From the sequence record NC_054913.1: 64,000 bases of DNA. One strand, given 5' to 3'. The notes beneath the pieces were generated by a model that was not told the origin of the DNA, made no database searches, and saw only the letters and a program-made list of their open reading frames with translations. Numbering within the stretch: the first letter of the stretch is position 1; each line of letters starts with the position of its first letter. This document shows positions 421 to 43,147 of this stretch, piece after piece. The DNA is from Escherichia phage F2. The translations under genes and the position numbers were made by a program.

Positions 421-450
421 TTGTACAAACTCTTGAGAGCAGAGTATAAT
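421..450 (+). promoter_or_regulatory. early promoter variant (TTGTAC -35, TATAAT -10) with inverted repeat flanking the -10
   Basis: TATAAT at 445-450 embedded in GAGAGCA...TGCTCTC inverted repeat; near-identical copy at 30095-30135. Confidence 0.45.
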
Positions 451-494
451 GCTCTCATGGATTACAAAAACATTAATCAATTGAGGAAATTAGC

Positions 495-27507: not shown

Positions 27508-27536
27508 TTTACATGCCACAAGGATTGTGGTACAAT
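27507..27536 (+). promoter_or_regulatory. early promoter
   Basis: GTTTAC at 27507-27512, TGGTACAAT -10 region. Confidence 0.5.
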
Positions 27537-28688: not shown

Positions 28689-28718
28689 GTTTACAAACAC
28701 CAAGGAAGGTGTTACTAT
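28689..28718 (+). promoter_or_regulatory. early promoter
   Basis: GTTTAC at 28689-28694, TACTAT at 28713-28718. Confidence 0.5.
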
Positions 28719-29593: not shown

Positions 29594-29880
29594 TTAAATT
29601 AACCGCAGTTGTATTATCTATTGGCATTTTGGCCGGATGTGCCCAGGATGTGCCCTTAAGCCCTAAAGAAACTTTACATCCGCCATGGCCTGAATCTATT
29701 GTTGAATATAACCAGAAATGGCAAGTAAAGGTTATTGATGGTAATCCGTGGGTTGGAATGCCGTTTGAAGACTCTCAAGAATTTCGTATCTGGTTAAACG
29801 ATGTAAAAAGATATGTACATGACCAGAAGACTATGTTATGTTATTATCGTAGTGGTTTAAAAGAGGAAAAATGCCAATGA
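29590..29880 (+). CDS. putative lipoprotein (pseT.2-like)
   Basis: 96 aa; signal peptide with lipobox LAGC. Confidence 0.5.
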   Translation: MIKLTAVVLSIGILAGCAQDVPLSPKETLHPPWPESIVEYNQKWQVKVIDGNPWVGMPFEDSQEFRIWLNDVKRYVHDQKTMLCYYRSGLKEEKCQ

Positions 29881-30095
29881 CTAAAGAACAACATGAATAC
29901 ATTAAAGGGCTTATCTATGAATCTGAAATGGCGGCTATGATTTATGGGCGCCAGATTCAACGATTAGAATCTTTGCCTCCGACTAATGACCGATTGTTAG
30001 TTCAGTCTCGTGCTAATCTGAAAAATGAATATCAGAATAAGTGGGCAGTAGCGACTAAAGCTCTTCACGAGTATATTGAATCTTTAGTAAAATAG
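29871..30095 (+). CDS. hypothetical protein
   Basis: 74-aa ORF, translationally coupled. Confidence 0.4.
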   Translation: MPMTKEQHEYIKGLIYESEMAAMIYGRQIQRLESLPPTNDRLLVQSRANLKNEYQNKWAVATKALHEYIESLVK

Positions 30096-30124
30096 TTTAC
30101 AAACTCTCAGGAGCAGAGTATAAT
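30095..30124 (+). promoter_or_regulatory. early promoter with inverted repeat flanking the -10
   Basis: GTTTAC at 30095-30100, TATAAT at 30119-30124 inside AGGAGCA...TGCTCCT. Confidence 0.55.
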
Positions 30125-30152
30125 GCTCCTATGGATAATTGAGGAAATCTAA

Positions 30153-30451
30153 ATGAAAACATTACTAGAGAATTACATCAAACGGTCTGATGAGTATATT
30201 GATATCTGTCGTGGAATGTCACTCGGCAATTATGACAAAGATGCAGCAAAGGCACTAGATGAAGCAGGTAAAGCTCTTCGTAAAGCTGCTAAAGAAAAAG
30301 GGTTGGATTTGCAACAACTCAAAAGTCATATGATTAAATTTATTTCTTCAAACGTTAGAAGTACGTCAATTAATAAAAACGTTGCTGAAATTAATAAAGA
30401 CCGGCGCGAGCATAACATTCGTATTCTTGAAATTTTCTTAGGAATAAAATA

Positions 30452-30452
<1 letters not shown>
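30153..30452 (+). CDS. hypothetical protein
   Basis: 99-aa ORF with RBS GAGGAAA. Confidence 0.45.
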
Positions 30453-36285: not shown

Positions 36286-36651
36286 ATGAACTACACCAAC
36301 TTCGAACGCAAATATGTTTCTAACGGTATCGCTGGTTCTATCGATATGGTTTGTTTGTGGAAGCATAAAAATGGTTCAGTATGTGAAATTGAGCAGTGCA
36401 TGACTCCTAATTATGTTTATATGCGATTTGAAAATGGCATCACTGTTTCAATCACGATGGAAGGTTCCAACTTCAAAATTGCATTAGATGACGATTTCCG
36501 TCAACGTGATTTAGGTACTCATCCTTGCTGGAACGGTGTTAATCGTAAACTTCTGGTTAAAACTTGGATTCGTCATATCCTGAGTAACCGAGCTAAACCT
36601 GAACATCTCGAAGCAATCTTTGATGTAGTTCTTAACGAATTCGATATCTAA
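36286..36651 (+). CDS. hypothetical protein
   Basis: 121-aa ORF with RBS GGAGAA. Confidence 0.5.
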   Translation: MNYTNFERKYVSNGIAGSIDMVCLWKHKNGSVCEIEQCMTPNYVYMRFENGITVSITMEGSNFKIALDDDFRQRDLGTHPCWNGVNRKLLVKTWIRHILSNRAKPEHLEAIFDVVLNEFDI

Positions 36652-41030: not shown

Positions 41031-43118
41031 ATGTCTGAACAATTAAATGAAGTGTTTGAATCTGAAGGCAGTCTTCCTGTCGTCAATTTGAACCCTAAAG
41101 CTAAAGTTCCACAAGTCTGGAAAATTGGTGATATCGATACAAACATCGTAGTTCGCTTATTCTCTTACCTTTCTGAAGGCGATGCTGTAAAACAAGTTAA
41201 ACTTGGCGACAAATACGCTCATGTTGTTATTATGAGTCTGTCTGAAAAGGGTAATCTCGCTGAATTGAAAAATGGCCTTGGTCCTGCTCCTATTGATGCA
41301 ATCAACACCATTTTCAATACGGTATATGAACAGGTTAAAGCTCTTCGTATGGATGCAGTTCTGTTCCGGTTCCCTACCAAGAAATTGAAAGGACGTGGAC
41401 AACAGCTTCAAACTCTTCTTGCTCGTTTAGTTTCTACTAAAACTGGCGGTCGTTTTAAAGTATTGTCAGCAATGTATCAATTCACAGGTAAACACACCTA
41501 TGTGATGATGGTTCGTAAAAATGCCAACATTGAAGATATTAAAGGCATCCCTAACATTAACACAGAGTTGTACACGAAAGTAGATTCTGATGTTGGCGAA
41601 GTTTATGTGAGTAAAAAGACTGGTGAAATGGTCACCAAAGAAGCGGCTATCGCTGGTTCTATTGCTGCTGTAGAAGAAAAACGTAAAGATAAGCCTGTTA
41701 TTGCTCGTACTAAAATTTCTCGTCGTGCTATTGCAGCAAGTCAATCTTTAGAAGCTGACCGCCAAGAAGGTGAGTTATTCCAGAAATACGAAAATTCTGC
41801 TAAAGAAGTTAGTGGCCCAGCTACAGCCGAATTACTTCCTGAAGCATATGAAATCGTACTAGCCCAAGCATCGTCCACAGCAAAAGGCACTTTAGTTGCT
41901 GATATCGAAAATAAGATTTATAATCGTATTGATGAATCCTTTAGATTTGCTGATGAAGTTTCTTATGGTAGTGTTATTAAGCCAACTTTAGAAAAGTTTG
42001 CTAAGAAAATTAAAACTGAAAAAACAACATCTGTTAAAGCATTAGCTGCTTTTGTTGAAGCTGCAAATGAAATTGCAGACTCTATTAAAGACGAATGGTT
42101 TGAAGATTTTAGACGTGATAATTTCCAACTGGCCGACGACGTTTTAGCTGAAGTATCTGAAAAAACTTGGAAACAACGTAAATCAGCGTTCTTGTCTAAT
42201 GTGATGTATACTTATGCACGAGAATCGGCTAGAGGCACCTTTAATATAACAATGAATCGGGACCCTAAACAATACTCTGTTGCTGAAAAACGAGCTATTC
42301 GTGAATATGCCTCTTCTGCGTATACCGATATCAATAATATGTTGTTAGGTCGTTATAAACCAGATTTTTACGATGTTGCAGATGAAGATGAAGTTAAACG
42401 CGCTATTGATGGTCTTGATTCGGCGTTTTTAAATGGAGACCGTTTACCTGAAGGACTAACGTTATATAGAGCCCAGTCTATCAGAATGCCTATTTACGAA
42501 GCAATGGTTAAAAATAAGGTATTCTACTTCAGAAACTATGTTTCCACTTCACTAGCTCCTATTATTTTCGGTGGGTTTAAAGAGAACGTTGCCCTTGGAC
42601 TTGCTCCTGAAGAAGTTCGCAAAGAGCTTAACATTGACAATAATGACGAAGGTGTTACTATTTCTCCTAGTCAAGTAAGAACAGCTATGCATGCACCAGA
42701 CCAAATCCGTGTTAACGTTGGATGGGCTATTGATGGCGCCCATAAAGTTAACGTGATTTATCCTGGACAGTTGAGTAATCACCCTAATGAGCAAGAAATT
42801 ATTTTGCCTAGAGGCATTCTCTTGCAGATAAATAAAATTACGGATGCGTCATCTGACACTGGTGCAGGTTTAGAATCCAACCTTAAATTTATTCAAGCTG
42901 AAGTCATGTCCTCAGACCAGTTGGACGAAGTTGTCATTTACGATGGTGATGTTCTCATGGAAACAGGCGAGGTGGTTGCTATGACTGGTGAAATCGAATC
43001 AGATGAGCCGATATCGTTCTCCTCATTTGTAGAAAAAACTAGTGCTCCTAAAGGATTGAAATTGTTAGCATCTTTAATGGATTTAGAATCAGTTCCGTTT
43101 AAATTTGTCCAAGGATAG
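41031..43118 (+). CDS. alt: Alt ADP-ribosyltransferase (packaged head protein)
   Basis: 695 aa (T4 Alt ~682); position adjacent to gene 30; C-terminal region has ART-like R...S...E spacing (YTDINNMLLGRY...LYRAQS). Confidence 0.8.
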   Translation: MSEQLNEVFESEGSLPVVNLNPKAKVPQVWKIGDIDTNIVVRLFSYLSEGDAVKQVKLGDKYAHVVIMSLSEKGNLAELKNGLGPAPIDAINTIFNTVYEQVKALRMDAVLFRFPTKKLKGRGQQLQTLLARLVSTKTGGRFKVLSAMYQFTGKHTYVMMVRKNANIEDIKGIPNINTELYTKVDSDVGEVYVSKKTGEMVTKEAAIAGSIAAVEEKRKDKPVIARTKISRRAIAASQSLEADRQEGELFQKYENSAKEVSGPATAELLPEAYEIVLAQASSTAKGTLVADIENKIYNRIDESFRFADEVSYGSVIKPTLEKFAKKIKTEKTTSVKALAAFVEAANEIADSIKDEWFEDFRRDNFQLADDVLAEVSEKTWKQRKSAFLSNVMYTYARESARGTFNITMNRDPKQYSVAEKRAIREYASSAYTDINNMLLGRYKPDFYDVADEDEVKRAIDGLDSAFLNGDRLPEGLTLYRAQSIRMPIYEAMVKNKVFYFRNYVSTSLAPIIFGGFKENVALGLAPEEVRKELNIDNNDEGVTISPSQVRTAMHAPDQIRVNVGWAIDGAHKVNVIYPGQLSNHPNEQEIILPRGILLQINKITDASSDTGAGLESNLKFIQAEVMSSDQLDEVVIYDGDVLMETGEVVAMTGEIESDEPISFSSFVEKTSAPKGLKLLASLMDLESVPFKFVQG

Positions 43119-43147
43119 TTTACAAACACATGGATGTGTGATACTAT
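43118..43147 (+). promoter_or_regulatory. early promoter
   Basis: GTTTAC at 43118-43123, TACTAT at 43142-43147. Confidence 0.55.

Follow-up and report, generated by a model that had tools for sequence, protein, structure and literature searches.

An early promoter cassette with an embedded hairpin in Escherichia phage F2 and its relatives among T-even phages

The two cassette copies in the window

We analysed a stretch of 64,000 nucleotides of Escherichia phage F2 (NC_054913.1), referred to as the window, which is 97–99% identical to RB69/HX01-like phages (Mosigvirus, Straboviridae, T4-type) and in which early transcription runs along the + strand. The subject of this analysis is an intergenic promoter element that occurs twice on this strand. 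Copy 1 lies between ndd.1 (218–418) and ndd (495–941), a gene order that follows the RB69 and HX01 annotations; the ndd product matches the Pfam family Phage_T4_Ndd with an E-value of 4e-89. Copy 2 lies between pseT.1 (29871–30095, assigned from the HX01 and RB69 annotations) and the homologue of RB69ORF231c (30153–30452, 99 amino acids). RB69ORF231c carries no mark of a T4 orthologue in the RB69 annotation, and a Pfam search of the downstream proteins matched Ndd alone, leaving ORF231c and its neighbours without a confident family.

The 5′ edge of copy 1 is the TAA stop codon of ndd.1 (416–418), with AATT next to it. There follows a predicted early promoter (422–450) with the −35 box TGTACA at 422–427, a 17-bp spacer and the −10 box TATAAT at 445–450, which together match 10 of 12 consensus positions. 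A hairpin (431–461) overlaps this promoter. It has an 8-bp stem, formed by the left arm TGAGAGCA (434–441) and the right arm TGCTCTCA (450–457), an 8-nt loop, GAGTATAA (442–449), and a 3-bp outer extension, in which TCT (431–433) pairs with GGA (459–461). The complete order is TAA-aat-TGTACA-aactct-TGAGAGCA-GAGTATAA-TGCTCTCA-t-GGATTACAAAA (the last element at 459–469), followed by the Shine-Dalgarno sequence GAGG (483–486) and the ATG (495–497) of ndd, which form the 3′ edge of the copy (483–497). At copy 2 the TAG stop codon of pseT.1 (30093–30095) abuts the −35 box. The predicted promoter (TTTACA at 30096–30101, a 17-bp spacer and TATAAT at 30119–30124) matches 11 of 12 consensus positions, and the hairpin (30105–30135) has a 7-bp stem of the arms AGGAGCA (30109–30115) and TGCTCCT (30124–30130), a loop at 30116–30123 and an outer extension of TCT (30105–30107) with GGA (30133–30135). 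The order here is TAG-TTTACA-aactctc-AGGAGCA-GAGTATAA-TGCTCCT-at-GGATAATTGAGG, then ATG (30153), and the ORF231c homologue is served by the Shine-Dalgarno sequence GAGG at 30141–30144 and the ATG at 30153–30155.

A first-pass annotation, made from the letters of the window alone, had described these two segments as a duplicated early promoter module with an inverted repeat around the −10 box. Both segments are present as quoted there: once the variable triplet is masked, a 30-nt pattern is found exactly twice in the window but in none of 100 shuffles, and BLAST aligns the two copies over 31 nt at 90% identity (E ~2e-5). The assignment as early promoters also held, with −35 and −10 boxes at 17-bp spacing in both. 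The statement that TATAAT sits inside the repeat needed refinement, as in both copies the loop holds only its first five bases, and the right arm begins with its last T. Between the copies the arms differ at two pairs (G:C to A:T and A:T to G:C), and both differences are compensatory, as had been claimed. Since similarity picks up again at the Shine-Dalgarno block AATTGAGGAAAT common to both (479–490 and 30137–30148), the whole cassette from stop codon to ATG is homologous between the copies. The leader of copy 1 is about 16 nt longer (462–478, between the shared ATGGAT and AATTGAGGAAAT), and the A-rich tail of its RegB-type site (see below) comes from these additional nucleotides.

Folded as RNA, copy 1 reaches −13.7 kcal/mol (z −4.1) and copy 2 −12.0 kcal/mol (z −3.1), and in each case 0 of 200 shuffles was as good. 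A covariance model detected the two copies in the window with 67 and 70 bits, the next match scoring 14 bits; no further copy was found in the window by short-word BLAST, by a regular expression with up to four mismatches or by the covariance model. The Rfam scan of the whole window gave no family at the gathering threshold, and its sole match near copy 1 was a meaningless snoRNA (E 0.4).

Two further observations concern the downstream genes. Directly after the ndd stop codon lies a terminator-like hairpin (949–968; AGGCCTAGCTTAATAGGCCT, then a T-rich tail). The RB69 record begins ORF231c at an internal ATG, resulting in 79 amino acids (L005 ~36316–36615, minus strand); counted from the Shine-Dalgarno sequence and ATG of the cassette, the frame has 99 amino acids, as in the HX01 annotation and at 30153–30452 in the window.

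A cassette family with conserved pairing

The genome-wide search for further copies proposed in the first-pass annotation ended at two in the window and led beyond it to a family of many members. The complete RB69 genome contains four copies, upstream of ndd, ORF231c, e.6 and 55.2, and the covariance model scored exactly these four and the two window copies at 64–71 bits and otherwise nothing above 20 bits. The RB69 orthologue of copy 1 is 100% identical over 80 nt, and that of copy 2 has a G·U at the outermost pair. The module was matched in approximately 715–730 phage records, typically at three to four sites per Mosigvirus genome and one per T4-type genome, and both window loci are conserved within the Mosigviruses. 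The T4-type member is the motB early promoter, GTTTACAAACTCT-TGGGACCA-GAGTATAA-TGGTCCTG, then GGAGUAUAAAA.

Members were collected by scanning IMG/VR with an arm-free pattern, to which four diverged BLAST hits were added. They occur in at least five T-even genera: Tequatrovirus (motB and another site), Mosigvirus, Gaprivervirus, Kanagawavirus and one further T-even genus, represented by contigs under the working label Dhaka-type, a genus assignment that is not verified. At least seven unrelated genes lie downstream of the cassette. A looser scan with AAACTCT-N9-AGTATAAT returned mostly unrelated contigs among the matches listed, and 93 of these were used as a negative control.

Ten left arms occur in the family (GAGAGCA, AGGAGCA, GGGAGCA, GGGACCA, GGGGTCA, GGGGCCA, GGGATCA, GAGAGAT, GAGGACA and GGGAGTA), and every one has a partner in the right arm by Watson-Crick or G·U pairing, GAGAGAT being without the innermost pair only. 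Orthologous promoters differ between genera in their arms by multiple double-sided changes. For example, the ndd promoter has GAGAGCA/TGCTCTC in the window, GGGGTCA/TGACCCC in Gaprivervirus and related contigs, and GAGGACA/TGTCCTC in Kanagawavirus. We aligned 20 distinct variants (alignment A1, with 160 stem cells) and found 97.5% of the cells paired, compared with 35–53% when the partner was slid by one to three columns. Double-sided changes were present in six of the eight pairs, and the covariation score was 0.507 versus 0.26 in shuffles. None of 500 shuffles reached this score, the percentage of paired cells or the count of cells changed on both sides. RNAalifold independently recovered the helix from A1 together with a 2-bp extension, and the 93 unrelated control sequences with the same flanking anchors had at most three contiguous pairs in this register. 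The palindrome is kept by selection and is not due to chance, as the first-pass annotation had suspected.

The layout corresponds to that of the cassettes of early promoter and stem-loop (PeSL) described by Arbiol et al. (2010; PMC2839356), for which the paper gives the order stop codon, A/T-rich region, −35, −10, stem-loop, Shine-Dalgarno sequence and ATG. According to the same text the stem-loop is most commonly found between −35 and −10 or over −10, and G-T pairs are noted; Comeau et al. (2014; PMC4122927) report PeSLs in T4/PST and KVP40/nt-1. Both window copies start at the upstream stop codon in an A/T-rich stretch, carry at the sequence level sigma-70-like/T4-early boxes with about 17-bp spacing (TGTACA-17-TATAAT and TTTACA-17-TATAAT), contain a stable stem-loop of the −10-overlapping class and end with a Shine-Dalgarno sequence and a start codon. 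They share with the published cassettes the strong early promoter with an embedded stem-loop and the G-T pairs in the stems, and likewise the occurrence in several copies, on different genes and beside insertions or deletions. By their sequence, the two segments are copies of a PeSL-type cassette. The earlier description as a duplicated module was therefore right about the repeat and missed the multi-copy, multi-genus kind to which it belongs (PMC2839356, PMC4122927).

There are also differences. The published PeSLs are from RB49/phi1, T4/PST and KVP40/nt-1, and the accessible portions of these papers do not describe RB69-like Mosigviruses. The Mosigvirus cassettes are homologous to the T4 motB early promoter and add a member to this known kind. 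Moreover, the window stems are of mixed sequence, not polyG/polyC, and have no U-tract, so that the published terminator activity is unproven for them.

Early promoters with an embedded hairpin are not confined to this family (family 1). A second subfamily of IP-locus type (family 2) is unrelated in sequence and has the same layout, with an 8-nt loop and the last −10 base opening the right arm. Its pattern is TAGGACTA-tgNTATAG-TAGTCCTA, in the window form TAGGATTA...TAGTCCTA, and wobble pairs as well as covarying extension pairs occur here too. Promoters of this type serve RB69 ipI, other internal-head-protein genes and, in the window, ndd.1, where the element (161–198, + strand) has its −35 box at 161–166, its −10 box TATAGT at 184–189 and its hairpin at 171–181/188–198. 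The sense RNA of this element folds with −13.7 kcal/mol (z −5.9) and the antisense RNA with −3.2 kcal/mol (z −1.0). In T-even phages, the genes of internal proteins (IP) are known to be flanked by repeated promoter elements (Repoila et al., 1994, cited after PMC2839356). The 161–198 element matches the type upstream of RB69 ipI and similar genes and has the same hairpin geometry as copies 1 and 2, whereas the copies themselves belong to a different sequence family. A third class has a 5-bp stem between −35 and −10 and is present in the window at 27508–27536, 28690–28718 and 43114–43142; its arms covary between sites, with AACCA/TGGTT versions in RB69. Among stringently defined RB69 early promoters, 16 of 23 contain a significantly stable embedded hairpin, compared with 5 of 60 control windows. 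We interpret the common geometry as a matter of space: intergenic regions of approximately 60–80 bp may leave only the spacer and the discriminator free for coding a hairpin, and if these are the only sequence-free promoter positions, the hairpin geometry would be fixed by them.

Strand, start site and read-through RNA

One-sided changes in A1 leave 19 G·U cells on the sense strand (five distinct column/type combinations) and two C·A cells, both at the terminal pair; pairing is retained in 97.5% of cells on the sense strand versus 86.9% on the antisense strand. The sense fold was more stable than the antisense fold in 17 of 17 family-1 variants and 19 of 20 family-2 variants (36 of 37 in total). 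The sense-strand wobbles and the more stable sense folding point to a single-stranded structure of the sense strand, i.e. RNA, and the hairpin probably acts in this form.

Standard sigma-70 geometry puts the predicted start site of both promoters at the seventh base after the −10 box, a purine in all variants. This position (A457 in copy 1, A30131 in copy 2) is the final base of the 3′ arm. RNA from the cassette's own promoter would thus lack the 5′ arm and form no hairpin; both arms would be transcribed only in RNA that comes from upstream, and the hairpin would be confined to read-through RNA. Accordingly, among all variants folded, every read-through RNA contained the hairpin in its minimum-energy structure, and none of the own-start RNAs did. 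Its position in the read-through RNA is about 13–15 nt past the upstream stop codon. Upstream of copy 1 a candidate promoter lies at 161–189, and copy 2 has two candidates, at 27508 and 28690; no convincing terminator was seen between these promoters and either copy. From the sequence we infer read-through across the cassettes, and the ndd.1 promoter at 161–198 is the likely source of read-through RNA into copy 1. For the T4 motB promoter, primer extension stops that mark its 5′ end have been reported (PMC1702504); no experimental +1 of the motB-type promoter was found in the MotB paper or the transcription review. The hairpin is most likely an RNA structure confined to transcripts that enter from the upstream gene.

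Beginning 1–2 nt after each hairpin, the leaders carry a sequence that resembles a cleavage site of RegB. The RegB/S1 consensus is GGAGRAYARAA (PMC1702504), in which GGA precedes a G, or rarely a U, and the remaining seven positions form an A-rich tail. Both copies conform to such a site in sequence: GGATTACAAAA in copy 1 (459–469, + strand) matches six of the seven tail positions and has U at position 4, and GGATAATTGAG in copy 2 (30133–30143, + strand) is weaker, matches five of seven and overlaps the Shine-Dalgarno sequence. All family-1 leaders have GGA(G/U) at +3 or +4, with four to seven of the seven tail positions matched (mostly six). The T4 motB leader GGAGUAUAAAA is a validated model substrate of RegB/S1, and its promoter is used in vivo (Durand et al., 2006; PMC1702504); promoter and leader genuinely belong to family 1. 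The window copies differ from motB in that they drive ndd and the ORF231c homologue and have the less favoured GGAU in place of GGAG, and GGAU is cut by RegB only in a strict A-rich context (PMC1702504). Within this comparison, RegB cleavage has been demonstrated only for T4 motB, for T4 55.2 and for a GGAU site of RB69 that is not named. The early promoter of T4 motB and the RegB site in its leader are reportedly already the subject of a study by Sanson and Uzan (1993). Like the covariation across genera and the sense-strand bias, the link between the family-1 RegB-type sites and the adjoining hairpin is not described in the accessible portions of the PeSL literature.

RegB requires single-stranded RNA, and structure protects its sites (PMC1702504, PMC3014915). 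The outer extension of the hairpin pairs CUCU or UCU with the GGA(G) of the leader. In T4-type motB the predicted pairing of this GGA is 0.98 in the read-through RNA and 0.01–0.19 in the own RNA. As a general role, masking of the RegB site was rejected: support is good for T4-type motB but weak for the window copies, and the second subfamily lacks the site; the folding models leave it as a possible extra role for some members. It is conceivable, though we consider it rather unlikely, that hairpin and RegB-type site form a single device that sorts two RNA populations. RNA from the own promoter would expose GGA(G/U) at +3/+4 and be rapidly inactivated by RegB, and in read-through RNA this site would be concealed within the outer CUCU/GGAG extension; where read-through RNA is cut, the upstream cistron would keep the hairpin as a 3′ cap.

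Overall, we think it fairly likely that the element is an early-gene PeSL cassette with a sense RNA hairpin that is specific to read-through and acts at the cistron boundary. The cassette runs from the upstream stop codon through a T4-type early promoter (−35 GTTTACA-like, 17-bp spacer, TATAAT) and the repeat to the leader, the Shine-Dalgarno sequence and the ATG. Arms of 7–8 bp fill the sequence-free parts of the promoter, namely the distal spacer (−23 to −16) and the stretch from the discriminator to the start (−7 to +1), which places the −10 box in the loop, and the leader begins with the RegB-type site, GGA[G/U] and an A-rich tail. Polymerases starting at the own promoter would make an RNA that includes only the final base of the 3′ arm and is unable to fold. 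Polymerases arriving from upstream, e.g. from the ndd.1 promoter at 161–189, would copy both arms, so that the hairpin would appear only in polycistronic RNA. At the cistron boundary it could attenuate or pause read-through, or cap the 3′ end of the upstream message after RegB or RNase E has cut the leader, and the outer CUCU/GGA(G) extension could conceal the RegB site in the read-through RNA. We infer from these features a read-through-specific cistron-boundary element that is attenuating, 3′-end-capping or both; the same applies to its action at the RNA level and to the position of +1, whereas the sequences themselves show the anatomy, the family, the selection for pairing and the strand bias. 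Attenuation has a precedent: one RB49 PeSL stem-loop lowered lacZ expression to an extent similar to that of a strong terminator (PMC2839356), and Arbiol et al. proposed there that the stem-loop terminates or attenuates upstream transcription and that the cassettes serve as recombination linkers.

A structure confined to read-through RNA is also found at the T4 genes e, soc and I-TevI, where the promoter lies within the 5′ strand of an RNA structure and only read-through RNA folds (PMC3014915); given the predicted +1, the same holds for the window copies. However, the structures of e, soc and I-TevI sequester the Shine-Dalgarno sequence and AUG and involve late promoters, whereas the window promoters are early and their ribosome-binding site, 20–35 nt past the hairpin, shows no consistent sequestration.

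Several points weigh against our interpretation. The +1 positions were derived from promoter geometry and not from mapped transcript ends. The family variants share ancestry, so that their counts are not independent, and the asymmetry of G·U over A·C goes back to few independent events, approximately 5:1 in family 1 and 3:1 in family 2. The search anchors used to collect family members fixed ACAAACTCT, and the left side of the outer extension is thus conserved partly by construction. Concealment of the RegB site is weak or absent at the window copies, with a predicted pairing of 0.73 in read-through RNA versus 0.92 in own RNA at copy 1 and of 0.49 versus 0.22 at copy 2, and because the second subfamily has no leader GGA, masking is not the general role. 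Masking of the downstream ribosome-binding site in the manner of gene e was considered and rejected, as at least 30 variants had no consistent extra pairing in read-through versus own RNA. An intrinsic (Rho-independent) terminator was likewise rejected: there is no U-tract (tails AUGGAUUACAAAA and AUGGAUAAUUGAGG), and a terminator scan called neither site. The terminator function reported for PeSLs goes back to the only published test, on one G-rich RB49 stem, and may not transfer.

Alternative explanations and implications

Of the alternatives, the one that survives best, and which we still regard as unlikely, places the function in DNA. A cruciform or a hairpin of single-stranded DNA would tune promoter opening or shut-off, or a structure-specific target would stimulate recombination. 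G·T pairs are tolerated in DNA hairpins as well, and a hairpin of the non-template strand would accept them, which is a further point against reading the wobbles as a sign of RNA. The symmetry centre lies between −12 and −11, i.e. at the upstream edge of the transcription bubble, and the geometry is identical in two unrelated subfamilies. The PeSL authors speculated that the stem-loop is a target of recombination proteins and mapped one RB49 crossover in the loop (PMC2839356), and the shut-off of early promoters has been described as incompletely understood (PMC3014915). However, a cruciform needs both strands, and the antisense strand was less stable in all but one of the 37 variants and essentially unfolded for the family-2 element of the window; the left arm, in addition, lies outside the transcription bubble. 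An 8-nt loop on a 7–8-bp stem is also unfavourable for cruciform extrusion.

Less probable again is a non-functional by-product, in which quasi-palindrome templated mutation and gene conversion would keep the palindrome with no selection on structure. T4 is a classic system for this kind of mutation. Paralogues do share arms within a genome, as seen for ndd and e.6 in RB69 and for motB and ndd in one contig of the further T-even genus, which suggests concerted evolution. Yet pairing is kept at orthologous sites in at least five genera with different arms, two subfamilies unrelated in sequence have a common geometry, and a purely mutational process does not predict G·U tolerance that is specific to the sense strand.

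An operator, one of the two roles put forward in the first-pass annotation, would have a dimeric phage or host protein read the palindrome at −10 and repress or activate the promoter. A palindrome over the −10 box is the classic operator layout, but we give this explanation very little weight. Pairing is kept by ten arm sequences, and single genomes contain at least three (GAGAGCA, GGGAGCA and GAGAGAT in RB69; GGGAGCA, GGGGTCA and GGGGCCA in one contig of the further T-even genus), which argues against an operator that is read by its sequence. The half-sites are not conserved; the conserved part is the loop, which is simply the −10 box. Wobbles that are asymmetric between the strands would moreover be meaningless to a protein that reads double-stranded DNA. 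The other proposed role, a hairpin at the 5′ end of RNA from the promoter itself, for instance as a stabiliser, is the least credible of all: 5′-end hairpins do stabilise bacterial mRNAs, but this one would need a start at least 23 nt upstream of the normal one, where no alternative promoter was seen, and RNA from the standard start is without the 5′ arm.

Beyond the read-through-specific hairpin at the cistron boundary, the conserved cassettes may double as patches of homology through which genes are shuffled. In IMG/VR contigs of the further T-even genus, at the locus that corresponds to copy 2, an open reading frame (ORF) of 153–160 amino acids is present in L011 and L013 and absent from L039, and the breakpoint is exactly the cassette ATG. 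RB69 P-modA (L003 12794–12819, minus strand) has a left half, TAGTGTACAAACTCTT, identical to the family, a different −10 half, GATACTAT, and no hairpin; judged from its two halves, it looks like a recombinant half-cassette, the product of recombination between cassette types. The ORF breakpoint and the hybrid P-modA are consistent with a shuffling role. Within L013 the N-terminus of the 153–160 amino acid ORF has diverged. The two window copies are 29.7 kb apart, and since gene 52 (topoisomerase), motA and further annotated replication and structural genes lie between them, a deletion between them is probably not viable.

These results confirm hairpin-embedded early promoters as a general T-even design and extend it to RB69-like phages. 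They add comparative evidence to it, namely strong compensatory evolution of the stem across genera and a strand bias that favours RNA over a DNA operator. For annotation, the cassettes are reliable markers of early gene starts, e.g. of the longer 99 amino acid RB69 ORF231c. A possible discrimination by the hairpin between read-through and promoter-proximal RNA, perhaps together with the neighbouring RegB site, can be tested with simple mutants, as the T4 motB region is dispensable and RegB assays exist. If hairpin and RegB-type site do form a sorting device, a single gene would have a built-in switch from immediate-early (promoter-proximal) to delayed-early (read-through) expression, and the PeSL stem-loops would become tied to the long-unclear stability of delayed-early RNA.

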